Below are positions 4,732 to 64,000 of a DNA stretch of 64,000 bases, one piece after another. The DNA is from Nitrospirota bacterium. Lineage in GTDB: Bacteria; Nitrospirota; UBA9217. Location of the stretch: NCBI GenBank assembly GCA_963749655.1, contig CAVVOB010000015.1:32001-96000 (forward strand), written 5' to 3'. The notes beneath the pieces are model-generated. The model saw only the letters and a program-made list of their open reading frames with translations, had not been told where the DNA came from and ran no database searches. The position numbers were made by a program, and so were the translations under genes. Each line of letters opens with the position of its first letter. The stretch's first letter is position 1.

Positions 4732-4742
4732 AGAGTGCCCCG

Positions 4743-15013: not shown

Positions 15014-15077
15014 GGAATGAACCGCGGCGGAAAAAAAGGAGTGATTACGTTACGCAATCAAACGGCAACTTGCTCAT

Positions 15078-21028: not shown

Positions 21029-21694
21029 TTACCGGCTGCGGAGCGATTCCGCGGCCTTGCCTGCCTCTCCGGCACGGACATCGTCTCCACTCTTCCGGTA
21101 CGCCTCGGCAAGGTGGGCATAGGCTTCGGCAAGGAACCCGGCCTGATCAGCGGGGATGAGGTTGATGGCTTCGCGCAGCGCTGCTATCGACTCATCCAGC
21201 CGGTTCAGTTTCAGCAGGACCATGCCTTTTGTATCGAGGTAATATCCCCGGTGTTCCGGCGTCGCGGCCAGGGCCTTCTGTATCAGGCCCTCGGCCCGGT
21301 CGATGCGGCGGTCTTGTTTCAGATAGACCCAGCACAGGTTGTTGTAAATGTCGCCGTTCTCAGGCTGCAGTAAAGCGGCCTTTTTGTAGGCGCCTTCGGC
21401 AGTTTCATAATTTCCCATTTGAAAAGAAAGATCAGCTAGAAGAATAAGGGATGAAACGGACTTTGGGTCACTTTTGACCGCGGCTTCGTACTGCTGCGCC
21501 GCGAGGTCGGCCTTTCCCTGGGCTTCGTAGATCTTGCCGAGCTTGACATGCTCCTCGGCGCTCAGCGGATCATTCAGAATGACGATCCTTGGAAGCGAAC
21601 AGGCGCCTGTAAAAGCCGCCAGAAAGGCGATGAAGCATGCGTAAAACGCACCTCTTATGAATAGTCTGTCAGTATTCACGGCTGGTTCCGTCAC
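21029..21694 (-). CDS. TPR-repeat lipoprotein
   Basis: Lipobox TGAC; DPLSAEEH; TPR helices (YNNL, YLDTKG). Confidence 0.82.
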   Translation of the reverse strand: MTEPAVNTDRLFIRGAFYACFIAFLAAFTGACSLPRIVILNDPLSAEEHVKLGKIYEAQGKADLAAQQYEAAVKSDPKSVSSLILLADLSFQMGNYETAEGAYKKAALLQPENGDIYNNLCWVYLKQDRRIDRAEGLIQKALAATPEHRGYYLDTKGMVLLKLNRLDESIAALREAINLIPADQAGFLAEAYAHLAEAYRKSGDDVRAGEAGKAAESLRSR

Positions 21695-22253
21695 CTTTCG
21701 GACGAATTATGAGCATCCATTGCCCCGCTCGCTTCCATGCCTTGGCAAAAGCGTCGTAGGCCATGACGCTGTTCGCCTGCAGGCCGTCATGCTCGATGAG
21801 AACGGCGTTCCTGTCATCAAATCCCACAGCGATAACGTAATGGGGCCTGCGGTAGAGTCCGAAGCCGAGATCAAGGAGGCAGATGACCGGCAGGTTCCTG
21901 CGGAGGGCGGTCTTCAGATCATCAAGAGTGCCTGCCGAGGATGCAGTCTCGAATCCCGCATTTCGCGCATAATTCTCCATGTCCATGGGCAAGGTGCCGC
22001 GGAGCTTCGGAACGTAGACCGCGGCGGTAATATCGTCCAGGGCAGCCGGTCTGCCCCAGAAAGCAAGGACGCCGGCAAGAGCAGCCGGTCCGCAGGTGTC
22101 CTCGCTCTGTCTGTAGAACGGGACCCCCTCTACGTAATGGCCCCGGGCCTCGATGCCTTTCCGAAGTTCGGAAAAGTCCCTCTGTGCGCAGGCTGCGAGG
22201 AACGCTGTGAACAGCAGAATGGCTAAATAAGGGAGTTTCATGGCTTGGTGCAA
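21669..22253 (-). CDS. C39-like cysteine peptidase lipoprotein (PA2778-like)
   Basis: LAAC lipobox; VPFYRQ..TCGPAAL catalytic Cys, PHYV..VG His, HDG Asp. Confidence 0.85.
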   Translation of the reverse strand: MHQAMKLPYLAILLFTAFLAACAQRDFSELRKGIEARGHYVEGVPFYRQSEDTCGPAALAGVLAFWGRPAALDDITAAVYVPKLRGTLPMDMENYARNAGFETASSAGTLDDLKTALRRNLPVICLLDLGFGLYRRPHYVIAVGFDDRNAVLIEHDGLQANSVMAYDAFAKAWKRAGQWMLIIRPKGDGTSREY

Positions 22254-39456: not shown

Positions 39457-40641
39457 TTATTCCAGCGATTGCCGCCATTCCCGCTGAAATTCGTCGTAGG
39501 AAATGAGGAACGAGTCGTTCACCGCCTTGCCGGTATTCGCGCCTGCGGCGAGGCTGTCCAGCATGGCCTTGACCCGGTACATGCCGAAGGAATCGACCGC
39601 ATACCGTACCGACGATAGACTCAGGAGATAGGCGTACATGGCCTGATTCGCTTCCAGCTTTGCGAAGGAGCCTTCGAGGGCCGAGAGAGGGGGGACCTTA
39701 CCCGACTGCATGAGCCTCTTCAGCATCCCCTGCTGATGGCCGTCGATTTCACGGCCTTCGAAATACTGGGCAAGACCTTCGTTGAGCCAGGTGGGGCATC
39801 GCGGTGTTATGGCGCGCACAACGGCATGGGTATATTCGTGGTAAAGCAGGCCCTTCAGTCCCGGCGTTTCTTCGTTGATTCCGCCGACAGGGATGCGGAT
39901 CTTGCCGTCGTAGATTCCTCCGCTCCATCCCGGAGCGTCAGTCACTTCCTGGAACTGCTTGCCCGTATACAGGATCACCTGGATTTCACGGTCGGGATAG
40001 TATGACAGCGCTTTTCCAATCTCGCCGTATGCGTCTTCGAGGATCCGGAGCACGATCCTTCCTGCTTCTATCTTTTCTCTGCCCTCGTACTTCGTCAGGA
40101 AATGACTGGTCACGTCGCGGTTGAAGTCCTTTTCCGCACCGTGCTCTTTTCTGATGCGGTCGAGCCGCGCCTTTATCTGCCCGTCCGAAGGATTCAGCGC
40201 GAGCGCTTTTTCCCAATACGCCGCCGCGGTTTCAAGATCGTCCTTGCGATAATAAAGCTCGCCGAGCACCTGATAGGCCGTTCCCTCCTTCGGGCTGAGC
40301 TCGATCACGCGGTTGAGTTCCTGCTCCGCGTACCGGTCGTCATGCAAATGAAAGTACACCATCCCGAGTCCGAGGTGGGCGGCAAAATCGGCATCATAAT
40401 ACCGGAGCGCCTCCTCGAATAAGTCCCGTGCGGTCTCATAACTGCCGTTCTTCAGCTGCTCCATGCCGTCGCGGACGTGGCGGGAATAGGTGTTCTGTTC
40501 GGCAGTTCCGGCGGACACCGATACGGGAGCTACCAGCAGAGTAAAAATAAGTCCGATTAAATGTGCTTTCACGCGCTGATGAGCAAGCATTCGCATATTT
40601 TCCGGTATATCCCTTCTCACTTCCGGCTTCTGACCACTCAA
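39457..40641 (-). CDS. TPR protein with peptidase MA-like metallopeptidase domain
   Basis: TPR helices, HEYTH zinc motif, WLNEGLAQY. Confidence 0.85.
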   Translation of the reverse strand: MSGQKPEVRRDIPENMRMLAHQRVKAHLIGLIFTLLVAPVSVSAGTAEQNTYSRHVRDGMEQLKNGSYETARDLFEEALRYYDADFAAHLGLGMVYFHLHDDRYAEQELNRVIELSPKEGTAYQVLGELYYRKDDLETAAAYWEKALALNPSDGQIKARLDRIRKEHGAEKDFNRDVTSHFLTKYEGREKIEAGRIVLRILEDAYGEIGKALSYYPDREIQVILYTGKQFQEVTDAPGWSGGIYDGKIRIPVGGINEETPGLKGLLYHEYTHAVVRAITPRCPTWLNEGLAQYFEGREIDGHQQGMLKRLMQSGKVPPLSALEGSFAKLEANQAMYAYLLSLSSVRYAVDSFGMYRVKAMLDSLAAGANTGKAVNDSFLISYDEFQREWRQSLE

Positions 40642-41036
40642 TCTTTCATGACCTTCACCATCACCCGCCGGTCCCGCGGGCCGTCGAATTCGCAGAAGAA
40701 CACCGCCTGCCAGGTCCCCAGAGCGAGACGTCCCTCTTCTACCAGAACGGTCTGCGAAATCCCCACCAGGCTCGACTTGATGTGAGCAGCCGAATTGCCT
40801 TCCGTATGGCCGTAATGGTCTTCAAAAGGGATGATCTTGTTCAGCTCCTTCAGCATGTCGCGTCCGACATTGGGGTCGGAATTCTCATTGATCGTGACAG
40901 CCGCCGTCGTATGGGGAACGTAAATGTGACATGCACCTGACCGGATGCCGCTCTCGGCAACGAGCCGCTGCACCCCCTGTGTGATGTCCACCAGTTCCGT
41001 TCTGGAATTCGTCTTCACCCTGAGCTGTTTGATCAT
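40638..41036 (-). CDS. yjbQ: YjbQ/UPF0047 family protein (secondary thiamine-phosphate synthase)
   Basis: PHTTAAVTINEN.DP, NSAAHIK, LGTWQ, EFDGPR. Confidence 0.92.
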   Translation of the reverse strand: MIKQLRVKTNSRTELVDITQGVQRLVAESGIRSGACHIYVPHTTAAVTINENSDPNVGRDMLKELNKIIPFEDHYGHTEGNSAAHIKSSLVGISQTVLVEEGRLALGTWQAVFFCEFDGPRDRRVMVKVMKD

Positions 41037-45474: not shown

Positions 45475-46356
45475 TCATCCCCTCGGATGATATTTTTCAT
45501 GTATTCGCCGGAGCCGCTCCTTTGATACATGGGTATAGATCTGCGTTGTTGATATGTCAGAATGTCCCAGCATGGCCTGGACCGACCGCAGGTCCGCGCC
45601 GTTGTCCAGCAGGTGGGTGGCAAAGGAATGCCTGAGCGTATGGGGCGATACGTTTCTTTCAATGCCCCCCTTCCTGGCATAGAACTTGATGCGTTCCCAG
45701 AACATCTGTCGCGTGATTCTCATCCGCTTTGAGCTGATGAACAAATAGTCGGAGTCGGCGGTCTTCAAGAGAGCACGCCGCCCGTGGTCCAGATAATTCT
45801 GCAGATGAACAGACGCAGCCTCGCCGATCGGAACGGCTCTTTCTTTGGATCCCTTTCCGATGACCATGAGAAATCCGCGTTCCAGATTCACGTCGTTGAG
45901 CCTTAGTTCGACAAGCTCGCTCACACGGAGACCTGTTGCGTAGAGCAGCTCCAGCATGGCCTTGTCGCGCATTCCGATATTGGTTGCACGATCTGGCTGA
46001 TCGAGAAGCACATCGACATCGGCTGCAGAGATCGTCCGGGGAAGGCGCTGCCACCCCCGGGGAGTGTCGAGATTGGACGTCGGATCGCGGTCGGACAGGC
46101 CGTCGATCTGCAGGTACTTATGAAATCCTTTGATTGCGGCAAGACACCGGGCAAGCGAAGCGGGGGCTATCCCGGAGGAGGAACGGAACGCTAAAAAAGT
46201 GGCCACATCATCCTGAGAGATTTCGTCCGGCGCCGCAGCGCCGACGAATTCGAAATAGCCGCGGAGGTCCCGCTCATAGGACAAAATCGTGTTGCGGGCA
46301 AGTCCTTTTTCAACGGCGAGATAATTCAAGTATTTCCCGATGATCAAGTAGTCCAT
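45475..46356 (-). CDS. xerD: Site-specific tyrosine recombinase XerD
   Basis: EKGLARNT, LYATGLRVSEL, GKGSKER, HTLRHSFATH, LRSVQAMLGH.DISTTQIY. Confidence 0.93.
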   Translation of the reverse strand: MDYLIIGKYLNYLAVEKGLARNTILSYERDLRGYFEFVGAAAPDEISQDDVATFLAFRSSSGIAPASLARCLAAIKGFHKYLQIDGLSDRDPTSNLDTPRGWQRLPRTISAADVDVLLDQPDRATNIGMRDKAMLELLYATGLRVSELVELRLNDVNLERGFLMVIGKGSKERAVPIGEAASVHLQNYLDHGRRALLKTADSDYLFISSKRMRITRQMFWERIKFYARKGGIERNVSPHTLRHSFATHLLDNGADLRSVQAMLGHSDISTTQIYTHVSKERLRRIHEKYHPRG

Positions 46357-48659: not shown

Positions 48660-50549
48660 TCATTTCTTCCGATGGCAAATAGTGCACAATTCATTGCGAT
48701 TTCTGATATCGTAGGCAAACAGATCCTTGGATTCTGCGCTGTGTGGATCATGACAACTGGAACAGGTCAGGCGCCGTCCCGGACGCAGCGGATCGGATTT
48801 GAGCCTGGTAGGATGCGTGATCCCCGTCAGGAGGCCGGTGATGACATGGACACCCGATGCTTTTTCCGAGTGGCAGGTGGTGCACACATCCCACGTTGAC
48901 TTTCTGAGCCAGAAACGCTGGTTGCTGGCGTGCGGATCATGACAGAGAGTGCAGTAACCAGCCTCGGTTGGCCCGTGTTTAAAGGTTTTAGCGAGCACTT
49001 CGCCGTGGCATTTAAGACAGACTTCCTTCACGGTCAGGTTGTTTGTTGTGGCGGCATCCTGATCGAAAACCCTTGCATACTGTTTGGACCCGAGAACATA
49101 GGTTATTTTCGTCTGGGCCGGAAGCTGAGCGCCCTTTGCGTCTTTTTTTACGACATAGGAGAGGGTTTCGGAGAAATTCCCGTCCATATTTCCAAGGTCC
49201 CAAACCAGATCGGAATCCTTTGCCCTGGGTTCCTTGGCGCTTCCCTGGAAATGCCCGCTCCCCTTCAAATAATGGACACCGGAAGGAATCCTTTCTGTGA
49301 GAGTAATTTTTTCAACCCTTGGCCCCTTAGTATAGGACATACTGATGAGCACCCTTTCCCGGTCCGTGAGAAGGGGTAGGTTCCGGCTGTTCGTTATCGC
49401 AACGTCGGCAGGATATACGACTACCTCGACGCGGTTGTTGAGTTCTCTGCCCTCCTGTGTACCATTGTCGGCCTTGGGCAGTGTGTCGCCCATGCCGACC
49501 GCAGTGATGTTTCTCGCCGGCGCGATCTTCGCTTCCTCCAATAATGCCGCGACGGCCTTTGCACGTTCCGCGGACAAAGCTTCGTTACTGACGAAGCCCT
49601 TCCCTTTTTTCGGCCCATTGTCCGTATGCCCTTCAATGCGTACACGGTCTCCCGGACTCGCTTTCACGTAAGCAATAACGTCTTTCAGTATTTCCAGGGC
49701 TTTATTCCGCGAAACGAGGACCGCGCTGGACGGCATGAACAGCTCCGTGCTCGAAAGCGTGTAGAGTACCGGTTCGACCGGCTGCACGGTTTTGGCGACC
49801 CTCCAGGGATCAAAGGACAAGAATTGATATTTCACAGGGTAGATGGCCGGGTCGTGACAACCGAGACAGTTCCAGACGGCCGCGGGACCATGCACATGGA
49901 TGCCTGTCGGTATGCTGTTGTGACAGGTGAAGCAGAGAACATCTTCAGGCTTTTTATGGGCGTAATCTTCGCTCGTCGCCTCCATCCGGTGACAGCCCGA
50001 GCATTCCGCTTCGTGTTCTCGTGAATGAAAAAGAGCCTGAGTAAAACCGGCCGGCGGCGCCCCTTTGAACGACGCCTCCCGGTTATATACGCGAAGATCG
50101 CGAGTTGCGTAGGTCTTCAAGACAGTCAGGTTCTTTTCATTCTTTACCTGAATGATGAACCTGACGGTGATCGTGTTTGCCCCCGGCTGGAGTGCAAGCC
50201 CCTGGGAAGCATGCTTTCCCGTAGAGCTGTCGATGACGGGATATTCTGTTTTATTGTTTACGACGGCCTGGAAAAACGGGGTTTTCGACCAGTCGGCGGC
50301 GGGGTCGAGGACGAGATTCACCCTGCTGTTGACCAGCGAATCCGGTCTGGGATAGAGGATTTTTACAGGCGGAGCATCCGCAGCCAGAACGTATGTTTCT
50401 GCACACAGGCAAGCAAGAACCAACGGAACTATGCAAACAAATAATCTGGTCAAAAGATGCCCCTGGTCATCGTTCCCGGTCAACGATTTGAAATGAGAGA
50501 CGCTTCTTCCGTGAGAGACGGGCTCAGCGGGAGTAGGTCTTTTGTTCAT
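48660..50549 (-). CDS. Octaheme cytochrome c with inserted OmpA-like and DUF11-like domains
   Basis: 8 CxxCH (3 N-terminal, 5 C-terminal); IEGHTDN..LSAERA..NNRVEV OmpA domain; LTERIPSGVHY..LVWDLG. Confidence 0.85.
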   Translation of the reverse strand: MNKRPTPAEPVSHGRSVSHFKSLTGNDDQGHLLTRLFVCIVPLVLACLCAETYVLAADAPPVKILYPRPDSLVNSRVNLVLDPAADWSKTPFFQAVVNNKTEYPVIDSSTGKHASQGLALQPGANTITVRFIIQVKNEKNLTVLKTYATRDLRVYNREASFKGAPPAGFTQALFHSREHEAECSGCHRMEATSEDYAHKKPEDVLCFTCHNSIPTGIHVHGPAAVWNCLGCHDPAIYPVKYQFLSFDPWRVAKTVQPVEPVLYTLSSTELFMPSSAVLVSRNKALEILKDVIAYVKASPGDRVRIEGHTDNGPKKGKGFVSNEALSAERAKAVAALLEEAKIAPARNITAVGMGDTLPKADNGTQEGRELNNRVEVVVYPADVAITNSRNLPLLTDRERVLISMSYTKGPRVEKITLTERIPSGVHYLKGSGHFQGSAKEPRAKDSDLVWDLGNMDGNFSETLSYVVKKDAKGAQLPAQTKITYVLGSKQYARVFDQDAATTNNLTVKEVCLKCHGEVLAKTFKHGPTEAGYCTLCHDPHASNQRFWLRKSTWDVCTTCHSEKASGVHVITGLLTGITHPTRLKSDPLRPGRRLTCSSCHDPHSAESKDLFAYDIRNRNELCTICHRKK

Positions 50550-51937: not shown

Positions 51938-51953
51938 TGCAAATTATGTGCCC
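51938..51953 (-). promoter_or_regulatory. Sigma-54 promoter of cytochrome/NHL operon
   Basis: Minus strand GGGCACATAATTTGCA = GG-N10-GC. Confidence 0.72.
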
Positions 51954-52248: not shown

Positions 52249-53010
52249 TTATTCAAGATCGGGATGACAGCGCTTACAATCCTGAATCGGGAAAGCAACA
52301 GTCAGATGGCAGGCTCCGCAGAACATTCCTTTATTGATGTAGTCCATGCGGAAATGCTTTGTGCCTTTTTTCTGGATATTAAAGATATCAGGATGACAGT
52401 CTGCGCAATCAAGCCACTCTGTATGCTTCAGATGAGGAAAAACGGCTCTGGTCTTTATCATGTTCCATTCCGGTTCAAGACGCAGGTTTTTGTCGAAGGG
52501 AATCGGCTCATAATTATCCGTAAGGCTCTGATGCGGTTTTATCATTTTTTTCCTGAGAGCCTTCACCCAGTTCACTTGATCGCCGTATCTCGCCCGGGGA
52601 AGGTTGTCCAGTTCCGAGTACCTGGCGTCTGTGGATCCGATGTTTCCGGTATGGCAGAGCAGACAGGTCTCTTCGGTGACTGCGAACGCAATGGTTCCGT
52701 TATGGCAGGCGCCGCAATACTCGCCCTTTTTGATCTTTGCGTCGGTGATGTCGGTTGCATTCGCTTTCATTGCGAAATTAAGCTCAAAGTGACAGACACG
52801 GCACGTATAATACCGCCGATGGACCCAATGGGAAAAAGACACTGGCGGATGCGTGCTGCTGGCGGTCAATCTGCTGATGAGGACATTGCCGTACCGTGCA
52901 GGCGGAGGGAGTTGCGGAAGGTTAAAAACGTCGTCGAACTGGGTGCCGGCAGCCATTGCGGCATGACTCACGGCACCCAGCAGAACGAAGAAAAAAACTA
53001 CTACTCGCAT
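52249..53010 (-). CDS. Hexaheme cytochrome, two c(7)-type triheme domains
   Basis: FSHWVH..CRVCH, YCGACH, CLLCH; FPH..H..CADCH, FCGACH, CKRCH. Confidence 0.9.
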   Translation of the reverse strand: MRVVVFFFVLLGAVSHAAMAAGTQFDDVFNLPQLPPPARYGNVLISRLTASSTHPPVSFSHWVHRRYYTCRVCHFELNFAMKANATDITDAKIKKGEYCGACHNGTIAFAVTEETCLLCHTGNIGSTDARYSELDNLPRARYGDQVNWVKALRKKMIKPHQSLTDNYEPIPFDKNLRLEPEWNMIKTRAVFPHLKHTEWLDCADCHPDIFNIQKKGTKHFRMDYINKGMFCGACHLTVAFPIQDCKRCHPDLE

Positions 53011-53062
53011 AAATTACCTGGCTTTGCCATCTGCCAATCGTGAAGTTCCTGCATGAAACCGA

Positions 53063-53848
53063 CTAATAGACTTCTTTCAAATGACAAAGTTGACAATCAT
53101 AGAACGGGAACGCAACCTTTGCATGACAGGCGCCGCAATACTTTCCGGCGAAGATATCCTGCATGTTGTATTTCGTCGATCCCTTTTTTGCTCCGAAAAT
53201 TTCAGGATGACACAATTCGCAGCCGTTGATTTCGGCGTGGATCTTGTGAGAAAAGATGATGTCCGGCATACCCAGGATCGTTGACTTGATGTCAAAGTCC
53301 TTCGGATTGGGGATGGCCTGTCGCTTGATGGAAATCCCCTCGACCAGGTCCTTGAGCTTGATCTGCCCGGCGGCCTCGGCTTTCATCCAGTCAACCCTGT
53401 TTCCAAACCGAGCCTGAGGGTAGTTCTTTAAATATTCGTTGAAATCATATTTGAACTTTACGTCCTTGCCGTAGGAATGGCAGCGGTCGCAGTTCTGCGT
53501 CTCGGACACAACCTTGTCGCGCGAGGTAGGACCGAAGGCCTCTTTCCCGTTGTGGCAGGAGCCGCAGTAAAGATTGTTCTTGTTGTCAGCTTCCCTGATG
53601 TCGCTGCCGCCGGCCTCCATGGCGAAACCAAGGTCCACGTGGCAGACCCTGCAGGTATACTTCGATCGGTGGAGCCAATGTTTGAACACTACCGGAGCTA
53701 TATTGCTTTTCTCCGAATAGTTGTTTATGACTACGTTACCGAACTCCTCGGGTCGCGGCATTCTTTTCTTGGTGCCGAAGTTGGCTGCAACCGCAAGGGA
53801 TGCAAACACCAGCACAAACACGGCAATGATCAGAACTTTGAATTTCAT
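53063..53848 (-). CDS. Hexaheme cytochrome, two c(7)-type triheme domains
   Basis: FKHWLH..CRVCH, CGSCH, CDRCH; FSH.IH..CELCH, CGACH, CQLCH. Confidence 0.9.
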   Translation of the reverse strand: MKFKVLIIAVFVLVFASLAVAANFGTKKRMPRPEEFGNVVINNYSEKSNIAPVVFKHWLHRSKYTCRVCHVDLGFAMEAGGSDIREADNKNNLYCGSCHNGKEAFGPTSRDKVVSETQNCDRCHSYGKDVKFKYDFNEYLKNYPQARFGNRVDWMKAEAAGQIKLKDLVEGISIKRQAIPNPKDFDIKSTILGMPDIIFSHKIHAEINGCELCHPEIFGAKKGSTKYNMQDIFAGKYCGACHAKVAFPFYDCQLCHLKEVY

Positions 53849-53936
53849 AATACCTTCTCCTTCCTCAGTTTATCATCTGCTGCAAGGCGTCCTTATTGAC
53901 GCGAACTCACTCGGACCATGATGGACCACCGGTGCT

Positions 53937-55390
53937 CTACCGGTGGCAGCTCAGGCACAAATCCGCCGGTTTCTCCGCTTTATAGCGGAAGAGATCCGAC
54001 CAGTCGGAGCTGTGCGGATTATGACAGCTGACGCAGGCCATCTTTCTCCCCGGCCGCCTCGGATCGTCCGCGCTGTCGAGAGGATGTCCGGCCTGTGATC
54101 CCTTTGCCTTGAGCCCCGGCAGCGTCGTTTTCGGGTGGGGATTGTTAAAGATGCCTTTGTGGCACTTCCTGCATGATTCATTTCCTTCGAACTTCGACAA
54201 ATTTTTGTACGGTGATGTGTGGTTGCCGTGGCAATCGTAGCACTTCCCGTCAGCGACAGGCTTATGCACGTTCTTGCCGGTGAATCCCTCGGTATTGTGG
54301 CAGGTGTAGCACAGGTCAGGCACTTTTCCGCTCAGGAGCTTGGGATTCTGGCTCTGATGCACGGTGTGGCATCCATTGCACATGCCGATCTTGAAGGGAC
54401 CGTGTTTTTCCTTGCCCCCCAGCTCCTCATTCATATGGCAATCAAAGCAGAGGGCCGGTGTCGATTTCGTCAGCAAATATTTCGACTTTGCAACATGAGC
54501 ATTGTGGCACGTCGTGCACCTCCCGCCCGCTACCGGCTTGTGTCCGTACTTCGCGCCTGTAAAGGATTTCTTATCATGGCACTTGTAGCACAGGTCCGGC
54601 TGCTTTGCCTGCAGAAGCTTCTCTGTTTTTGATTGATGCGAGGTATGACAGGACGAGGCAGTTGCCTTCCTCAACGGGAGCGTGCACGATCCCCCCGGTG
54701 TAGGCGCTCTTGTCGTGGCAGGAGTAGCAGAGGCCGGGTGAATCCGCTACAAGCAGATTTCTTGCGTTCTCGGAGTGCGGGTTATGGCAAGAATTGCATT
54801 TGCCGGAGATTACCGGTTGATGCTGCATCGCGCCTCTTGTCGGCAACGCTCGCCTTATCATGACACCGGAAACAAAGTTCAGGCATGCTGAAGGTCAGCA
54901 GTTTTTCGCTGTTGTCCGAACTGTGGGCCTCATGACAAAACATGCAGAGACCGGCGGCAGTGGGGAAATGAACGTTTTTCTTGGCAGCGATCTTCTTATC
55001 GTGGCACTTGTAGCACAGGTCCGGCATGGCCGTAGTCAGCAGCTTGACGTTGTTGGATGAATGCGGGTTGTGGCAGGATGTGCATTTGCTCGTGCCGATC
55101 GGCTTGTGCTGATACTGCTTTAAAAAAAGACCTCTGCTGTGGCAGTCATAACACAGATCAGGCTGATCGGCCTTAAGGCTCAAAGTGGCCTTGTCCTTGC
55201 TGGCATGAGGATTTTCGTGGCAGGCGCTGCACCCCTTCTTCATTGCTGCATGGAGCACCTTCCCCTTGCTCATTGCCTCATGACATTTATTGCAGTCCTG
55301 GTCCTGCGCCGCGGCCGAAGGACGCGCAAAAACGAGAAGAGATGCACAGAAGCATGCCATACAGAATGCGAGTAGGTTCTTACGTTTCAT
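53937..55390 (-). CDS. Multiheme cytochrome c (~19 hemes, doubled-CxxCH repeats); two frameshifts
   Basis: Joined ORFs 54782..55390 (7 CxxCH), 54574..54861 (2, plus 1 at the junction), 53937..54674 (9); signal peptide. Confidence 0.85.
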
Positions 55391-55453
55391 GTCCCTTTCC
55401 AGTCTTGCCCGAAGAAGCTCAGAATAGGATCGCTGCTCCAGCCACTGCGGAGT

Positions 55454-56751
55454 TTACTTGATCTGCCGTATAAATTGTTTGAGTTCGGAGTCATCGGGGG
55501 CGATCTTGAGAGCCCGTTCCCAGGTATCTTTCGCCCTGTCCTTCTTCCCGATTGCGTAATACCCCGATCCGAGCCTCTTCCAGGCAAGGATATTCTTCGG
55601 CTGCAGTTCAATGACGATGGTGCACTCCTGGATGGCCAGGTCGTAACGCCCGTCGTAAATATGATTCAATGCGGCGAAGAGGTATTGATCAACGATATTC
55701 ATGTCGCCCACCGGGGCTTCCATGGTCGTCAGGATGGAGACATACTTGAGCTCAAGGAATCCCTTGACCGCAATGGTCAGCGACGTCGGGTTCAGTTGAA
55801 ACGCATACCAGGCTGCGGCCATGGAGGCTTTGCGGTTGCCGTCGACGGCGATGTAGTGCGCCATCGCCGTTCTCATCATGTCGCCTGCCAGGTTCGCGTC
55901 GTCAATGCGAAGCGCCACTTTGGCGACATCTTCGAGCCGCGAGATCATGGTCTTGACGTCGATGTCGGTCGGGTTGTCGGCAAGGATCTTGCTGTAATAG
56001 TCGCGCGCGGTTATGTAGTCGCCCCGTTCATAGGCCTGTTTCGCATCGGCGTAGATGGTCTTCATTTTCTCACGAACTGCCGACGCTATGTACCGGGAAG
56101 CGGCTTCCTGCTTGTCGTCGATATCGAGGATCTTCTTCCATTCGGCAATCGCCAGATCGTACTGTTTGTCCTTCATGTAGGCGTCGGCCTGGTCGTAGTG
56201 TTTCTTGGTCCGGACATCGACGACATTGCTTTTTGCCTTGTTCAGGAGGCTCAGGGCTTTACGGTCGTAAGGTCTTACCGCGAGGATCTTCTCCAACTCG
56301 TTGACCGCGGACGATAGTCGTTTTCCTGGATGAACTTCTCGGCCTGCTCGTGCATCTCGTTGGTGGTCTTATCGGTAATGAGATTTTTCGTTGTGTCTAT
56401 CAGGGTCGCGAACCTGCGGTCGTCGGGGTTCATCTTCAGCAGCTTGTCCCACGTCTCGATCGCCTTGGCGTAATCCTCGTTCAGGAACGCGTCGGTCGCT
56501 TCCTTGCAGAACGGCTCCATCGACTGCTGTCTGGCCAGCGCCAGATAGCGGGATGCGGTCTTGTCGAAAGGATCGATGGAGAGGATCTCGTTCAACAGAG
56601 GCGCCGCCTGCTCGAATTTCCCCTCTCGGAGGAGAGCGACGACGTCCTTCTTGAGCTGATCGATCCGCTCGACCTGCTTCGGCGTTACGGCTTCAGCGCC
56701 GGCTGCAATGCAGAACAGAAGCAACAGAATAAGAGCAAAAGACTTTTTCAC
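55454..56751 (-). CDS. Secreted TPR-repeat protein; frameshifted
   Basis: Signal peptide MKKSFALILLLLFCIAAGAEA; tandem TPR helices across 56275..56751 and 55454..56296. Confidence 0.8.
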
Positions 56752-57417
56752 CCTTTGACTCCTCTGACCACGGTGATTTCGATGCGCCGGTTTTTTGCCC
56801 GTCCGGCGTCATCTTCGTTTGAAGAGGCGGGCCGATACTCGCCGAAACCGTGGGCTACCAGCCGCTCGGGGGGGATCCCCTTGTTGATGAAAAAATAAAT
56901 GACGCTGAAGGCCCGCGCCGACGACAGTTCCCAGTTCGACTGGTACTGCTGGGTGTGAATGGGAACATTGTCGGTGTGACCTTCTGCAATGATGCTGTTG
57001 CCCATGGGCTTCAGCTGACTCTCCAGATAGTCCAGGAAAAACAGGATGTCCTTCTTGAGGTCGGCGCTGCCGCTGTCGAAAAGGGCGAAGGCTCTCCATG
57101 TTGATCTCGATGTTGTGCGGGGTCATCTTGATGCGGATTTTGTCTTCCAATCCGTTTTTCTTGATGAAGTCCCGTACATTCTGGGCCAGCGCGATCTCCA
57201 GTTTCATCTGCTTGACCCGCGGATCGTTCGGGTTGGTCGATGCAAGATCGGAAAGCGCTGTTTCATATTCCACGGAATTGACCGAGGAAAAGGCGTAGAA
57301 CATGATGAAGAGAATGACGAGGGTGAGCATCAGGGTGCTGTAGGGCAGCATCCAGAGCTCGGTCTCCTCCATCTGTTCTTCGGTATAATGTACGAATTTC
57401 TGAAGAACCGATATCAC
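56748..57417 (-). CDS. MotB-like stator subunit 2 (TM lacks conserved Asp); frameshifted
   Basis: TM WMLPYSTLMLTLVILFIMFYA; LFDSGSA, GHTDNVPI, NWELSSARA, NRRIEI OmpA domain. Confidence 0.82.
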
Positions 57418-58084
57418 AGCGTGCTCCTGGGCTGACGCACGATCGTCAGCTCGATTCGCCTGTTCCGTGCGCGATGTTCTTCCGAATCATTCGGAAACGC
57501 CGGATGGAATTCGCCGTAGCCCGCGGCAACAAGCTGTTTCGGATCCATTCCTGATGAGGTGAAAAAGTTGACGACGCCGACTGCCCTGGCAATGGATAAT
57601 TCCCAGTTGGACCGGTAGGCTCCCCCGCGCACGGGTGTCGGGTCAGTATGGCCTTCGATGATAATGTCGTTCGGAAAGGGCTCGAACATACCCTACCAGA
57701 CTCTCCAGGACGTTGACTGTTCCGGGGTTCAGCTTGGCGCTGCCTATGGAAAAGAACGATTCGGGATTCAAAGCTATCTTAACGGACTTCTCGCCGACCT
57801 CTATGGTCGCTTTGCCGGCCAGCTTGCCCTCGGTCACCGCCTGCTGGAGCATGCGGATGGCTTCTTCTTCCCGCTGCAGCTTTGCCTGACGCTCGAGTTC
57901 CACCTGGTCGCGCGCCGATCTGTTGATGACCGTACTTTCCATGCCCGAAACGACCATCTGCTTATCTGCTGCGGTCATGCGGGTCATGGCAAAGAGCATG
58001 AGGAAAGAAAAGCATGAGGTTCGTGGTAATATCGGAGAAGATAATGAGCCAGATATTCCCTATTTCTTTTCGTTTTTCCGTCAT
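57414..58084 (-). CDS. motB: MotB-like stator subunit 1; frameshifted
   Basis: Manual translation from 58084: MTEKRKEIGNIWLIIFSDITTNLMLFFLMLFAM (W..F/Y.D motif); GHTD, NWELSIARA, NRRIEL. Confidence 0.8.
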
Positions 58085-58124
58085 GTCGTCGTCAGCCTTA
58101 CAGTTCTTCCTCGGGTCTCAACGG

Positions 58125-58896
58125 TTATTTCTGCCGCATATGAGCCATGATGAATGCAGTCAGTTTCTTCCGCAGAATGAGCGGCACATCGCCCTGCTGG
58201 ATCGACATGATGCCTTCAGCGATCATCTCTTTGTTGATGATGTCGCGTTCGCTGTGGTCCGTGAGCTTCGTGGCGATCGGGATGAAGACATTCGCGGAAA
58301 AGATCCCGTAAAAGGTCGCCGTGACGGCGTTCGACATGGCGGCGCCCATGCTCGAGGGATTGGACAGGTTGCGCAGCATGTCCACGATGCCCATGAGTGT
58401 GCCGAGCAGTCCGAAAATGGGGGCGACCGTGGCCATCGTCCTGAATGCTCCGGAGACCTTCTGCTGGTTATGACGCGTGTAGAATATCTCCCGGCCGAGG
58501 TTGTCCTTGATCACGTCATGATCGAGGCCGTCCACGAGCATCTGCACTCCATGAATGAGAAATTTGTCGGTCTGGTTGGGCAGTTCCGACGGAAGACTCT
58601 CGATGCCCTCCCGCCGTGCCTTTCTCGGCAAGAGTGGAAAGATGATCGATCATGTTTTCCATGTCCTTGTCGCTGTGCTTGCTCGGGAACAGGAGGATGC
58701 GAAGCGACGGGACGATTTCCTTGATCACCGGCCAGGGATAGGCGATCAGGGTCGCGCTGAACGTACCCCCGTAAACGATGATCAGGGCCAGGGGATTGAA
58801 AAGCATATGCAGGATGTTGCCTGCAGCGAGAACATACAGGATCGTCAGCAGTATCGCGACGAGCCCGATTACGGTCATTTTATCGATTTTTTCCAT
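58125..58896 (-). CDS. motA: MotA/PomA-like stator subunit; frameshifted
   Basis: LIIVYGGT, KARREG, FLIHGVQMLVDG, APIFGLLGTLMG, AVTATFYGIFSANVFIPIATKL, EGIMSIQQG. Confidence 0.9.
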
Positions 58897-58898
58897 GG

Positions 58899-60330
58899 TT
58901 AGCTGTTTTCAACCTCCACGAGTCCTTCGCTGATCAGCCGCCTTACCAGAACCATCACATTCTGCTTCTCCCGGCGCAGCCGCGTCGCTGAGAGAGGACG
59001 ACTGAGGTCCATTTCTTCCTTGAGCCGTTCCGATGCTCCGGCGCTCAGGGAGGTAATGACTTTCTGCTGGATCTCGACAGGAAGGGATTTCAAAACCTGG
59101 GCAAAGAGCGTGGCGTCGATGTTCCGGTACAGCGTCTGAACGCCCTGCACGGGCAGATCCCGGATGATGTTCTCCAGGCTCTTCACTTTCTGTTTCAGGC
59201 GCGTCGCGGTCTGGGCGTCTTTCGTCTCGAGTGTTTTTACGATCTTGTCGCGGACGTCGTCGCTCGTCATATCGAGCAGCGTGACCAGCTTTGCTCTCGC
59301 CTCCTACGACGTACGCCAGCTTGCTTTTGACCATCTCTTCGAGGGCCGCGACCTTTTCCGTGTTGATTTCTTCCTTGCCGAGCGCGAGTGCAACTTCGAC
59401 CTGCCGCTCCTTCGGGAAAAGTTCAAGGAGCCTCATGGCGATCGCGGGGTCGAGATAATTCGCCACAACTGCTATATCCTGGGGGGTCTTGTCCTTCATC
59501 AGGAACGCCAGACTCTGGATGTCACGCTCCCGGATGAAGGAAAACGGAAGAGACTGGTCGGCAGCCGGCGCACCTGCTCCGGAGCGGTCCGCTTTGCCGG
59601 AAAGGACCTCCCGCTCGTAGCTGGACGTACGTTCGACCGTATTGACATTAACGGAAGTCGAAGATGCCCCCCCGCGAATGTGATTCCAGTCGATGTCCTT
59701 GAGCGCCGGGGCGATTTTTTTCAACGGGTCCATGAAGAACATCCCGACGGCGACGAGCATGAAGCCGCCGATGATCGTCAGGAGAAGCCAGAAGAGGTTC
59801 GGCGGGAAAAACAGGGATGACCAGTAAAAACCCTTGGATTCGAAGTCTACCTTCTTTATGTTGATCTGGTCGCCGCGATTCTGGTTGTAGCCGATGACGT
59901 TCTTTGCGATGTCCTCGATAAGAGTCGCGATCGACCCCGGAACGCTTTTGTCGATCCATATCGACAGGACGATCTTGTTGACCTTGTACTTGCTGCTCCC
60001 GGCGCCGAACAGCATTTCCGATTGCCCCGCGCCGAATTCCTTCTTTTCCGGAACTCCGGGAAGTACGAGGGCGTTCGTTTTTTTCTTTTCAAGAAGCTTA
60101 TCGCTGTCCCCCCGTGCCGACGCCAGCTCGGCATTCACGAAAATGACGACCCGGTCGGTGCCGGTGATTTCCATGATAACCTGCTTCAGCTTTCTTTCGA
60201 GCTGGTTCTCAAGGGAAATCTTGAGTGCATAGTCATCGTTGACCTCGGCGTGGGCCCGATGAACGGTTGCAGCAAATGTCAATGACAGCAGCAGAAGGCA
60301 GAGCACGAAGCGATTCAGTTTATGAACCAT
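58899..60330 (-). CDS. FliF(RBM3)-TM-FliG(middle+C-terminal) fusion protein; one frameshift
   Basis: Signal peptide; LENQLERK..G..V.V..EL, LPGVP, IGYNQNRGDQINI (FliF C-terminal ring motif); TM; PFSFI..PQDIAVVANYL (FliG-M); ERLKEEM..VRRLISEGLV (FliG-C, 58899..59270). Confidence 0.8.
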
Positions 60331-60445
60331 TTTTCCCGATCCCCTATGTCTATAAGTTTTGGATTAAATTGATGCGGCCTTTGCAGCAACGAAAAGAATC
60401 ATGCCGTTCTGTTCAGGCACATTTTTTTCATAACCTGCTAATGAA

Positions 60446-60461
60446 TGCAAATAGCATACCC
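60446..60461 (-). promoter_or_regulatory. Sigma-54 promoter of motor/cytochrome operon
   Basis: Minus strand GGGTATGCTATTTGCA = GG-N10-GC. Confidence 0.65.
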
Positions 60462-60534
60462 TTCACAAGGGGGAAAATTCACAGTTAATAAACCGATTTT
60501 ATTGGTAATTATGGAATGTACTACTACGACTCAA

Positions 60535-60550
60535 TGAGCGTATATGCTCA
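60535..60550. promoter_or_regulatory. Palindromic putative enhancer (bEBP site)
   Basis: TGAGCGTATATGCTCA, 14/16 identical to 52036..52051. Confidence 0.6.
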
Positions 60551-60753
60551 AACATTGTTGATTAGCGCTCTATCACTGCCGTCATATGTTCGATAGCGCG
60601 ACACAATAACATATTGATTCAACATTTGTAAAGTGGAATCTTGTCTTTTAATTGAATTGCGTGTATGATACCCCCCGCAGATTTTTACGGGACCATTCAC
60701 CAAAAAAAATTCCCAAAATATTGGGTGCTGAGACCCGAAAAAAGGACGGTACT

Positions 60754-62397
60754 ATGCGTAACGTAGCGGTTGGAATATTGGTTTGTTTCATGATGGTAAA
60801 CATTGTCGGTACAGAAGCGTCGGCCGCCAAAAAAGACTCCAAAAAAACGACAAAACAAACGACCGCAACGCCTGCACAAACCGGGCAGGAGGCGGCCGCA
60901 AAGCCGGAAAAGTCGGAACCGATCAATGCACGGTACACCGACAAAAGCGACGGCACGATCCTGGACAAGAATACCGGGCTTGTCTGGTTGAAAGACGCAA
61001 ATACCGGAAGTCTCCCTTTGCCGTACGAGGGGGCAAAACAGTACCTCCAGGAAATGAACAGCGGCAGGAAGCCCAATTTCGGCTTTACCGACTGGCGCCT
61101 GCCTACCATCAATGAAATTGAGACCCTCGTCGAAAAAACCAGGTTCTATCCGGCGCTTCCTGCGGGCCATCCCTTTACGAACGTGCAGAATAATTATTAC
61201 TGGTCTTCTTCAACGGGCAGAGATGTCATTGACTATGTATGGATCGTCGACATCGCCTCGGGCGAAATGACCATGGACTATGTGTCGGCATGCAGCTACA
61301 AATTCCTCTGGCCGGTGAGAAGCGGCTGGATGCCGACTACTGCGAAAGCCAGCACGGTCATGACCGGAGGTTTGAACGAATTCGGACAGCTCGGCGACGG
61401 TTCAACGGGAGACCGGGACGCCCTTCTGCCCGTCAGCGGGCTTGACAATGTCGTCCGGGTCTCCGCAGGACTTGAACATGCCGTAGCGCTCAAATCCGAC
61501 GGCTCGGTGTGGGCGTGGGGAAGAAACAACGGCGGCCAGCTCGGAAACGGCTCCAGTGAAGACAGCCGCGTTCCTGTCGCAGTCAAGGACCTCTGGAAGA
61601 TCACCGATGTGGCGGCCGGCATGTTCCATACGGTCGCACTCGCTTCAGACGGCGCCGTCTGGACCTGGGGAAGGAACTCCTACGGCCAGCTCGGAAACGG
61701 CTCGAACACCGACTCCAACACTCCCGTAAAGGTTAAGGGCCTGTCGGGCGTCGTCAAAATCTCTGCAGGGATGTATCATACCGTCGCGGTCAAATCGGAT
61801 GGAACCGTCTGGACCTGGGGGAGAAATGTCTACGGTCAGCTCGGGAACGGCTCGAATAAGGACGAAAACAGCCCGGTGCAGGCTTCCGGACTTTCCGGCG
61901 TGATCAACGCAGCAGCCGGTCTGCATCATACCATTGCCCTGAAATCGGATAAAACCGTCTGGGCATGGGGCTGGAACATCAACGGGATGCTGGGGGACGG
62001 GACAAGCACTGACCAGATGAAGCCGGTGAAGGTGCTGGGACTTTCCGACATCACAGACATCGAGGCCGGGCTCCATCATTCTATCGCACTCAAGACGGAC
62101 GGGACGGTCTGGGCATGGGGCGGCAACGAATACAGCCAGCTCGGGAACAAAACGGCGAATGGGGCCACTGCCGTGAAAATCGAGGGGTTGGGGAACATCA
62201 AGAAAGTTTCCGCAGGGACCTACCATTCCATTGCGGTGATGTCCGATGGGACGATCTGGGTGTGGGGCAAGGACCTGAAAACACAGCCCGCGAAGCCCTA
62301 TCCCGTGAGGATCTGGGATGTGGCCGGGATCAACGATGTGGCCGCAGGAAGGTTTTATACGGTCGTGCTGAGCGGGGGCAAAACAACGGCGCCATGA
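60754..62397 (+). CDS. Secreted DUF1566 (Lcl C-terminal-like) + RCC1-repeat protein
   Basis: Signal peptide, DGTILDKNTGLVW, DWRLPTINE, YWSS; ~7 RCC1 repeats (HxVALKSDGTVWxWGxNxxGQLG). Confidence 0.88.
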   Translation: MRNVAVGILVCFMMVNIVGTEASAAKKDSKKTTKQTTATPAQTGQEAAAKPEKSEPINARYTDKSDGTILDKNTGLVWLKDANTGSLPLPYEGAKQYLQEMNSGRKPNFGFTDWRLPTINEIETLVEKTRFYPALPAGHPFTNVQNNYYWSSSTGRDVIDYVWIVDIASGEMTMDYVSACSYKFLWPVRSGWMPTTAKASTVMTGGLNEFGQLGDGSTGDRDALLPVSGLDNVVRVSAGLEHAVALKSDGSVWAWGRNNGGQLGNGSSEDSRVPVAVKDLWKITDVAAGMFHTVALASDGAVWTWGRNSYGQLGNGSNTDSNTPVKVKGLSGVVKISAGMYHTVAVKSDGTVWTWGRNVYGQLGNGSNKDENSPVQASGLSGVINAAAGLHHTIALKSDKTVWAWGWNINGMLGDGTSTDQMKPVKVLGLSDITDIEAGLHHSIALKTDGTVWAWGGNEYSQLGNKTANGATAVKIEGLGNIKKVSAGTYHSIAVMSDGTIWVWGKDLKTQPAKPYPVRIWDVAGINDVAAGRFYTVVLSGGKTTAP

Positions 62398-62975: not shown

Positions 62976-64000
62976 TCAAAGGATCCCAAATCGTTTCATT
63001 CTCCGTCTGAACGCGTCTCGGGGCATCTTCAGCAGCTGGGCTGCTTTCGTCTGGTTGCCGCTTGTCATATCGAGCGCTTTTCGTACCAGTGCGTTTTCGA
63101 CATCCTCGAGGGCCAACCCCGTCTCGGGAATGACGAATCCATCAAGGGAAACAGGGGTGCTCATCGATGATACTTCAGGAGAACGCCCTTCGAGAATTTC
63201 GGGAGAAAGATGTTCCGGTCGGAGCTCGTCGTCGATCTCCAGGATCATCGCCCGTTCGATGACGTTCTTCAACTCCCTCACATTCCCGGGCCAGGAATAG
63301 GTCAGAAGGATCTGTTCCGCCTCCTGCGATATGCCGCGCACATGCTTGTGACACTCCTGGTTGAAATACTCGATGAAATGGTGCGCCAGAAGCAGAATAT
63401 CCCGCCCGCGATCCCTGAGCGGCGGAAGGTTGATCGGCACGACCTGAAGGCGGTAGTAGAGGTCTTTCCGGAAAGTTCCGTCGGTCATGGCCTTTGAAAG
63501 CTCATGGTTCGTAGCCGACACCATCCGGACATCTACTTTGATGTCCTTGACCCCTCCGACCCGCTTAAAGGTCTTCTCCTCCAGCAGCCGGAGCAGTTTG
63601 GCCTGCATGCTCAGGTGCATGTCGCCGATCTCGTCGAGGAATACCGTTCCGCCGTCGGCCAGCTCGAAAAGTCCCTTCTTTGCGTTTTTCGCGTCGGTGA
63701 AAGCGCCTTTTTCGTGGCCCATCAGCTCGCTCTCGAGGAGGTTCACGGGTAAAGCCGCGCAGTTGATCGCCATGAAAGGCTGGTCGCCCCGGGCGCTGCT
63801 GAAATGAATAGCCTTGGCCACCAGCTCCTTGCCCGTTCCGCTTTCTCCCTGGATAAGGACCGTCGTAGCATCGCTCTTTGCTATCTTCAGGATAAGGTTC
63901 TTGATCCGCACCATTTCTTCACATTCGCCGAATATGGCATCTACCCTGCTCCTGCATTCCTGGCGAAGCTGCTTCACCTGAATGCGGAGTGAGCCGGCCT
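62976..64000 (-). CDS. Sigma-54-dependent transcriptional activator (NtrC family), 5'-truncated by window
   Basis: GESGTGKE, GAFTDA, FLDEIG, FRKDLYYRL, WPGNVREL, Fis-type HTH. Confidence 0.93.
   Translation of the reverse strand, partial: AGSLRIQVKQLRQECRSRVDAIFGECEEMVRIKNLILKIAKSDATTVLIQGESGTGKELVAKAIHFSSARGDQPFMAINCAALPVNLLESELMGHEKGAFTDAKNAKKGLFELADGGTVFLDEIGDMHLSMQAKLLRLLEEKTFKRVGGVKDIKVDVRMVSATNHELSKAMTDGTFRKDLYYRLQVVPINLPPLRDRGRDILLLAHHFIEYFNQECHKHVRGISQEAEQILLTYSWPGNVRELKNVIERAMILEIDDELRPEHLSPEILEGRSPEVSSMSTPVSLDGFVIPETGLALEDVENALVRKALDMTSGNQTKAAQLLKMPRDAFRRRMKRFGIL

Follow-up and report, generated by a model that had tools for sequence, protein, structure and literature searches.

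The 64,000-nucleotide stretch of Nitrospirota DNA analysed here (the window) carries on its minus strand a cassette of five genes, which code for a fusion of FliF to FliG (FliFG), a flagellar-type MotA, two MotB proteins (MotB1 and MotB2) and a secreted TPR protein; next to them come three genes for multihaem cytochromes (cytA, cytB and cytC). The cassette is a real, conserved, flagellum-independent rotor-stator module made from known parts, whose link to multihaem cytochromes is lineage-specific. On balance the evidence tips, by a little, towards a rotor-stator machine without an axle, powered by ions, self-contained and derived from the flagellar motor. Loci are referred to below by L numbers and genomes by G numbers.

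The fusion protein was modelled with AlphaFold2 from an alignment (A1) of 28 intact homologues (mean pLDDT 69.5). It can be seen that the model contains, in order, an N-terminal hydrophobic helix, a domain of alpha-beta-beta-alpha-beta arrangement (residues 32-161), a transmembrane (TM) helix (176-211), a disordered linker (219-258) and the middle (M) and C-terminal (C) domains of FliG (267-466). The periplasmic part is a single domain of about 145 residues, and in the monomer model a disordered insertion of about 40 residues (73-113), carrying an invariant LPGVP, lies within this ring-building domain. The hydrophobic N-terminus, with AHA before EV, suggests that a signal peptide would be cleaved. 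The RBM3 domain was matched by PF08345 at 25.3 bits (cut-off 23.8), and the same match was obtained in L041 and L042. When the model was compared with the PDB by Foldseek, FliF MS-ring, S-ring and RBM3-collar chains were returned with E values of 2e-4 to 2e-3 (the RBM3/S-ring chains 6sd3_Q, 8z5v_A and 8z4g_1 with 2e-4 to 6e-4 and TMt 0.55-0.58), together with FliG MC structures at 6e-9 to 1e-7. FliG_M (33 bits) and FliG_C (58 bits) both exceeded the Pfam cut-offs, and in a profile search of solved sequences residues 257-467 aligned to Thermotoga FliG (1lkv, E 1e-23); the NCBIfam fliG equivalog gave 62 bits against a cut-off of 226.7. No match to RBM1/2 (Pfam YscJ_FliF, PF01514) was found in the fusion protein or in its own genome, and Pfam gave none to FliG_N in the Nitrospirota fusion proteins examined. 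According to the model, the joint between FliG-N and the FliF tail would be replaced by a covalent connection that runs through TM helix and linker, and a topology running from a periplasmic ring domain through the membrane to a cytoplasmic FliG fits. A complex prediction with four copies of the RBM3 domain (A1 residues 29-176) scored 0.30 and 0.08 against a mark of 0.42 and weighs neither way. Within the FliG part the Gly-Gly hinge is kept, and VGGE is invariant in A1. The torque helix is present with altered charges, its first Arg being replaced by Gly and its acidic pair DE by EE, and the FliM-binding motif EHPQ reads DKTAQ in the alignment to Thermotoga FliG.

For MotA, MotB1 and MotB2, structure comparisons were made with the intact orthologues of L002. 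MotA has a length of 256 amino acids, and all ten of its matches to solved structures at E<=1e-3 are MotA or PomA, over the full length and with E values of 1e-41 to 2e-22. Among NCBIfam models the best match was flagellar MotA (184.5 bits, cut-off 340), and MotA stays below every equivalog cut-off. No ExbB or TolQ chain occurred among the solved matches, and the TolQ model gave 20 bits (cut-off 221). In both Nitrospirota and Elusimicrobiota the motif ARRxxxES of MotA is conserved, as is the Gly at the first torque-helix Arg of FliG, a pattern compatible with a co-adapted contact between MotA and FliG. Residues 9-219 of MotB1, comprising the TM helix, the plug and the peptidoglycan-binding domain, align to the MotB proteins of Clostridium and Bacillus (6ysf/8ucs) Asp on Asp; the channel Asp stands in FSD or FAD and falls on the Asp of 6ysf and 6ysl. 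The corresponding motif of MotB2 reads YST in six of the seven loci of one comparison, the seventh, L006, being frameshifted at this place, and HST in L042. Every readable Nitrospirota MotB2 has the Thr and both Elusimicrobiota MotBs keep the Asp, so by alignment the Asp is lost lineage-specifically from one half of the presumed B dimer. Both MotBs carry an OmpA-like peptidoglycan-binding domain according to Pfam, and their periplasmic parts align to MotB and PomB. In the TPR protein the best matches to NCBIfam TPR models were all far below the cut-offs.

Such parts could also belong to an envelope energiser of the Tol-Pal/TonB type, in which the force of the stator would pass to the TPR protein or to MotB2 and the FliG fusion would be a static anchor or regulator. 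The list of parts is similar (a MotA/TolQ-like channel, a B subunit, an Asp-less OmpA-like binder in MotB2, a TPR protein and a beta-propeller neighbour), and the TPR protein has a weak match to tol_pal_ybgF (39.7 bits, cut-off 90.1). This possibility is nevertheless quite unlikely, since the only solved structures that MotA matches are flagellar MotA/PomA, with TolQ at its 20 bits, and since FliG-C, which is known to take up the torque of MotA, is conserved here in fusion with a ring-building domain. A relation to Zorya was considered and rejected: PADLOC gave no ZorA match for MotA and no match of any kind for the fusion, and the MotBs hit ZorB by general MotB similarity. The one other PADLOC match among the five core proteins was marginal and joined the TPR protein to PDC-M71B (E 3e-4).

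The host genome (86.6% complete, 39 contigs) was searched with Pfam for flagellar genes. No FHIPEP (FlhA), Flagellin_N, Flg_bb_rod, YscJ_FliF, FliMN_C or FliM was detected in it, and it has a single FliG_C match. FHIPEP was likewise absent from five of five related Nitrospirota genomes, each with exactly one FliG_C, and from G261 (one contig, 96% complete) and G143 (99% complete), that is, from 7/7 relatives in all. As controls, four flagellated reference genomes were used, and FHIPEP was matched in them. Among three Elusimicrobiota genomes tested, FHIPEP was missing in two and present in one.

Taken together, the above results agree with much of what an earlier note had read from the letters of this DNA alone. 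Its description of the fusion (RBM3 only, one TM helix, FliG M and C, neither RBM1/2 nor FliG-N) is borne out by Pfam, AlphaFold2 and Foldseek; the Foldseek comparison, which it had proposed for the corrected fusion and which was made with the model built from intact homologues, finds the N-terminal domain RBM3-like, with matches to FliF S-ring and RBM3-collar chains. The flagellar-type MotA, the two MotBs and the TPR protein that it had named were recovered by Pfam, and MotA and the MotBs also by alignment to solved structures. The host that it took to be non-flagellar indeed has neither export gate, rod, flagellin nor FliM/N, and the seven relatives have no FlhA. Its idea of a rotor and stator put to a non-swimming use thus gains support from the anatomy and from the flagellum-free host. 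Lastly, the gene order, the tight packing and the 52-88 bp cytochrome gaps that it gave hold up under Pfam and measurement: the spacings within the cassette are 2, 40, -4 and -4 nucleotides (computed with the start of MotB1 moved to 58084), and those from TPR to cytA, cytA to cytB and cytB to cytC are 63, 88 and 52 nucleotides.

The order FliFG-MotA-MotB1-MotB2-TPR is identical in 15 of 15 further Nitrospirota loci (L002-L008, L036-L043). For each of the five core genes the ratio of nonsynonymous to synonymous substitutions (dN/dS) was 0.06-0.17 in two pairs of Nitrospirota loci, L037 versus L038 being excluded. Of 401 sampled genomes of the phylum, 20 matched at E<=1e-20 (17 fusions and three with the FliG part only), and within the family the cassette was found in 14 of 64 genomes, patchily by genus. 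A profile search of 1.84 billion representatives yielded 177 clusters at E<=1e-30, and many of these are full length. A distant member, P0079, has relatives in Elusimicrobiota, where the order is TPR-FliFG-MotA-MotBa-MotBb-REC/GGDEF; L056, from a second lineage, is arranged as in Nitrospirota. Two locus scans with single proteins turned up Elusimicrobiota alone. Homology between the TPR proteins extends across the two phyla (E 2e-24, 26% identity in 242 amino acids). By Atlas cluster labels only, which are unconfirmed, the family also occurs in Cloacimonadota, Bdellovibrionota, Bacteroidota and Thermodesulfobacteriota. Because the order, a homologous TPR protein and two MotBs recur in two phyla, the core is counted as five components, and by sequence comparison it is old and constrained, and in Nitrospirota it is under purifying selection.

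The earlier note gives no more than a hint of one caveat. In the assembled window, single-base frameshifts break six of the eight genes, eight in all: one each in FliFG, MotA, MotB2 and TPR and two each in MotB1 and cytA. Independent contigs, some of them at least 99% alike, have one base fewer at 57683, 58619/58621 and 59295, and each change restores the frame; the shorter reading was thus obtained at 3/3 frameshift sites covered by any contig. These contigs come from three public DNA runs (shares 0.05-0.09) that cover the stretch in part and leave five frameshift sites uncovered. The 78 full-length homologues of the fusion, of 458-483 amino acids, are all intact (those examined have 471-475), two more homologues are shorter, and the cassette of L006, from a metagenome-assembled genome with very long contigs (here a 2.35-Mb contig), is likewise hit by several frameshifts. 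Because of the agreement at all covered sites, the intact homologues and the similar damage in L006, the eight frameshifts are most likely assembly errors. One observation speaks against this: all eight are confined to 6.4 kb, and none is seen in the 8.6 kb of seven flanking genes with orthologues, which has a p of about 0.001 under a uniform rate. The clustering leaves room for decay of the window's own copy, and such decay leaves the identity of the family unaffected.

It may be asked whether the cassette is then a decaying remnant of a lost flagellum, throughout the family or at least in its own genome. The frameshifts clustered in the cassette and cytA, the lack of the cassette in the other 14 genomes of the genus and the inversion of the block relative to all relatives (see below) would suit this explanation. 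It is highly improbable, as the dN/dS values, the intact homologues and an order conserved in two phyla are opposed to it, as are the covered frameshift sites, all three intact in near-identical independent contigs, and the similar frameshifts of L006, another metagenome-assembled genome of very long contigs.

If the module works as the proposed rotor-stator machine, the fusion protein would oligomerise through RBM3 into an inner-membrane ring, which would show the torque helices of FliG-C on the cytoplasmic side and form a structure like the S-ring or collar in the periplasm. Units of MotA5-MotB1-MotB2, anchored to peptidoglycan, would turn this ring by ion flow, acting through FliG-C, and the TPR protein may be a periplasmic scaffold for the stators or an output adaptor. 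In part of the Nitrospirota, the window's own genome included, dedicated periplasmic cytochromes (one 19-haem protein resembling DmsE/MtrA and two hexahaem proteins of c7 type) would have been acquired as accessories. As rod, export gate and switch are missing, the work would be done inside the envelope and not on a filament.

Several points weigh against such a machine. Ring formation and rotation of the fusion protein are predictions from sequence and from the model, and no output component was identified. With EHPQ gone, C-ring-like behaviour of the fusion's FliG cannot be assumed. In MotB2 the Thr falls on the channel Asp of 6ysf and 6ysl, so that a heterodimer of MotB1 and MotB2 would hold a single protonatable site; to our knowledge, this is the case in no characterised 5:2 motor. 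In addition, the cassette was found in 0 of the 14 other genomes of the window's genus.

Concerning the cytochromes, cytA has 19 CXXCH motifs in the intact L002 orthologue and matches the NCBIfam DmsE-family decahaem model (274 bits, cut-off 192), and cytB matches nanowire_3heme, a c7 trihaem domain model (118 bits, cut-off 40). The triplet cytA-cytB-cytC stands directly after TPR in the window and in 10 Nitrospirota loci. Counting any cytochrome gene in this place, the number is 12 of 16 Nitrospirota loci, over a fusion identity range of 44-94%. One of them, L041 in the complete genome G261, has a small cytA-like gene (14683-15087) that overlaps the stop codon of TPR by 4 nucleotides; 100 bases within it are N. 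In L005 and L006 a sigma-54 activator comes directly after TPR and multihaem genes occur upstream only, L042 and L043 have no cytochrome gene in the locus, and an open reading frame (ORF) with two or more CXXCH was found in 0/6 Elusimicrobiota loci. For these three reasons the cytochromes are placed outside the conserved core. An orthologue of cytB (at least 80% identity) is present in 12 of 64 family genomes, and all 12 bear the cassette; the remaining two cassette genomes, like the 50 without a cassette, contain nothing closer than cytB paralogues of 57% identity or less. By gene content, then, the cytochrome link is real in part of the Nitrospirota and more than chance, and it is accessory, not core.

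Elsewhere in the window's own genome there are further cytB-like hexahaem paralogues of 50-54% identity (G000:C14:219712-220509 and G000:C19:19203-19946), and in other family genomes such paralogues often form tandem pairs without a cassette.

The linkage raises the possibility that the module serves the cytochromes, in that a proton-driven ring would assemble, position, gate or move a multihaem conduit, or couple electron transfer to ion flux. A cytochrome gene follows TPR in those 12 loci, with the 4-nucleotide overlap in L041, no terminator-like site was predicted in the three gaps from TPR to cytC in the window, and a cytB orthologue was met only in cassette genomes (12/12 of the 64 sampled). 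We hold this to be rather unlikely all the same, because multihaem ORFs are missing from the six Elusimicrobiota loci and cytochrome genes from L042 and L043, because the sigma-54 activator takes their place after TPR in L005 and L006, and because a contact between cytochrome and motor proteins is hypothetical. Physical linkage and kinship would moreover lead one to expect the co-occurrence of cytB and cassette anyway, through shared descent or joint transfer. The more specific proposal, a free-standing engine with a one-protein rotor and heteromeric stators, whose periplasmic S-ring/TPR output would act on the 19-haem and the two hexahaem proteins so as to insert, position or gate a conduit, is unlikely; if true, it would be the first mechanical coupling of an ion-driven rotary motor to extracellular or periplasmic electron transfer. 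The link between motor and cytochromes in the earlier note therefore stands in part. It is seen in 12/16 Nitrospirota loci, with cytB found only together with the cassette, and it fails for the core, to which the cytochromes do not belong (0/6 Elusimicrobiota loci). The neighbourhood survey that the note had called for came out in the same mixed way: cytochromes recur and the hosts are mostly without FHIPEP, but the recurrence is limited to part of the Nitrospirota and one Elusimicrobiota genome has FHIPEP.

Regulatory genes adjoin the cassette in both phyla. The sigma-54 activator flanks the cassette in relatives too; its full-length L005 orthologue has the composition REC-AAA-HTH, and in L006 a HAMP histidine kinase lies next to it. 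In Elusimicrobiota a REC-GGDEF gene comes after the cassette in 7/7 loci that reach that far (L044, L045, L046, L050, L052, L053, L054). The minus strand upstream of the fusion gene, when searched, gave no sigma-54 promoter-like site, and the window as a whole has 42 sigma-54-like sites at two or fewer mismatches compared with 57.9 expected, which is no enrichment. A separate site, GGGCACATAATTTGC (51939-51953, minus strand), has one mismatch to the consensus and lies at the annotated start of the cytochrome gene cytD. Judged from this site, the genes for cytD, the OmpA-cytochrome and the NHL proteins could be under the neighbouring sigma-54 activator.

These neighbours allow the module to be regarded as a signalling device, in which engagement of the stator with FliG, or load, would be read by the response regulators nearby (REC-GGDEF or the NtrC-type activator). 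The REC-GGDEF gene in the seven Elusimicrobiota loci, the REC-AAA-HTH activator at the Nitrospirota cassette and the histidine kinase of L006 point in this direction, and a stimulation of cyclic di-GMP production by flagellar stators in Pseudomonas, described in the portion available of one paper (10.1101/483339), was counted for it as well. We assign it only a low probability. The regulators differ by phylum and may only control transcription of the cassette, the fusion gene has no sigma-54 promoter-like site upstream, and a ring domain, two peptidoglycan anchors and a TPR protein are much structure for a sensor. The rotor-stator machine is kept as the preferred explanation.

The features of the region are collected in the following table.

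Table. Genes of the rotor-stator cassette, the linked cytochromes and the flanking region (window coordinates; ORF, open reading frame)
Feature	Position	Strand	Evidence	Frame
FliF(RBM3)-TM-FliG(M+C) fusion	58899..60330	-	Pfam YscJ_FliF_C (residues 113-163) and FliG_M (272-341) in ORF 58909-60330; FliG_C in shifted frame 58899-59270	Frameshift near 59295
MotA, flagellar-type stator A subunit	58125..58896	-	Pfam MotA_N and MotA_ExbB in two frames (58516-58896 and 58125-58631)	Frameshift near 58620
MotB1, Asp-bearing TM helix (IWLIIFSDITT) and OmpA-like domain	57414..58084	-	Pfam OmpA in frame 57414-57689	Frameshifts near 58040 and 57683
MotB2, plug, TM helix with Thr for Asp (WMLPYSTLML) and OmpA-like domain	56748..57417	-	Pfam MotB_plug (frame 56809-57417) and OmpA (frame 56748-57005)	Frameshift near 57030
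Secreted TPR protein, about 432 amino acids if intact	55454..56751	-	Pfam TPR families (frames 56275-56751 and 55454-56296)	Frameshift near 56290
cytA, multihaem, repeated paired-CXXCH units	53937..55390	-	Pfam Paired_CXXCH_1, three frames	Frameshifts near 54850 and 54640
cytB, hexahaem, two c7-type trihaem domains, six CXXCH	53063..53848	-	Pfam Cytochrome_C7	Intact
cytC, cytB paralogue, c7-type, six CXXCH	52249..53010	-	Pfam; CXXCH counts	Intact
Secreted protein, Lcl_C domain and RCC1 beta-propeller, divergent from cassette	60652..62397	+	Pfam	
NtrC-type sigma-54 activator, cut by window end	62976..64000	-	Pfam Sigma54_activat, AAA_lid, HTH_8	

The Lcl_C/RCC1 gene adjoins the fusion gene in the window and in 12 loci (L002, L003, L005-L008, L036-L041). 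It has no match upstream in L042, and for L004 and L043 the upstream sequence is absent. The block that extends from cytC as far as the RCC1 gene (52249-62397) has an orientation inverted with respect to every relative, L002-L008 and L036-L040. As a result of this inversion, the genes for cytD, the OmpA-cytochrome and the NHL proteins are placed downstream of cytC, with the sigma-54 activator beyond the RCC1 gene. No notable inverted repeats were seen at the borders of the block. Between cytC and the next cytochrome gene there is a gap of 306 nucleotides. The OmpA-cytochrome gene (48660-50549, minus strand) codes for a protein of 629 amino acids with an OmpA-like peptidoglycan-binding domain (270-371) and a multihaem part with 8 CXXCH; this OmpA-multihaem fusion is unusual and is kept beside the cassette in relatives. 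Just past the two NHL genes that end the cytochrome and motor region, a gene for an XerC/D-like tyrosine recombinase is found (45475-46356, minus strand), which may be a housekeeping enzyme or the mark of an island in a genus otherwise without the cassette. Elsewhere in the window there are same-strand ORF pairs that overlap by 4-86 nucleotides, at 2550-4746, 21029-22253 and 39457-41036.

Should the module work as a motor, it would be the smallest known derivative of the flagellar rotor and stator, with a one-protein rotor and with no axle, export gate or switch, and at least two phyla would have turned the torque between FliG and MotA to a purpose other than swimming. It would then bear on how simpler working units could have given rise to the flagellar motor or have come from its decay, and on the role of rotor proteins in non-motile species. 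It would also be a tractable minimal system for studies of torque generation, in which the Asp-less MotB2 would probe the two-site model of 5:2 motors, and the cytochrome linkage in Nitrospirota provides a concrete hypothesis for its output.

Among known systems, the flagellar motor's core shares with the module an RBM3-like domain, FliG M and C with the Gly-Gly hinge, a flagellar-type MotA and a MotB with plug, Asp (in MotB1) and peptidoglycan-binding domain. The differences are that FliF and FliG form one polypeptide here, that RBM1/2, FliG-N, FliM/N, export gate, rod and filament are missing from the own genome (the hook is likewise counted as missing), that EHPQ is lost and the torque-helix Arg replaced by Gly, and that there are two MotBs, one of them Asp-less, and an obligatory TPR partner. 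The gliding motor AglRQS of Myxococcus combines one MotA/TolQ-like A subunit with two different B subunits in a non-flagellar task. It is a member of the TolQR/ExbBD-like group and works without a FliG partner, whereas the MotA described here is of flagellar type. PflA and PflB of Campylobacter are periplasmic TPR scaffolds of a stator system. They and CpoB/YbgF of Tol-Pal resemble the present case in that a secreted TPR protein, the presumed organiser, is encoded with a peptidoglycan-anchored, ion-driven stator; there is no specific homology, the NCBIfam TPR matches being far below the cut-offs. In Zorya (ZorAB) a MotAB-like pair also occurs outside the flagellum, but the present MotA has 256 amino acids and no ZorA match.

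The published literature that was searched, in the parts available of each source, gives passing mentions only and leaves the module undescribed. In a preprint on magnetotactic Elusimicrobiota, fliG and motAB are noted without flagellar structural genes in free-living members and their role is called unclear (10.1101/2022.07.08.499144); its Supplementary Fig. S2 may list genes. Another preprint, which deals with the loss of motility, finds rotor proteins in 11% of non-motile species, and the passages available raise the question of their purpose and leave it open (bioRxiv 10.1101/2024.12.05.626484). The available text of a MotAB phylogeny paper (PMC12505986) makes no mention of such a cassette, and its data sets may list genes. 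Engineered full-length FliF-FliG fusions of Salmonella and Vibrio are described, in the parts available, as still building MS-ring-like rings (PMC6079021, PMC11481574, PMC10941966). Those fusions are complete, made in the laboratory and set in a flagellar context, whereas the present one is natural, truncated and flagellum-free. In the fusion of Chlamydiaceae, as far as the available part of the source describes it (PMC4768692, Bergeron 2016), a naturally shortened FliF is joined to a FliG domain in non-flagellated bacteria, as here. The chlamydial protein has RBM2 and another RBM, no SpoIIIAG-like (RBM3) domain and FliG-M only, and it is without adjacent stator genes, in contrast to the present fusion, which has RBM3 only and FliG M and C and always stands with MotA, two MotBs and a TPR protein. 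On that description, the Chlamydiaceae FliF-FliG fusion is the closest natural precedent.

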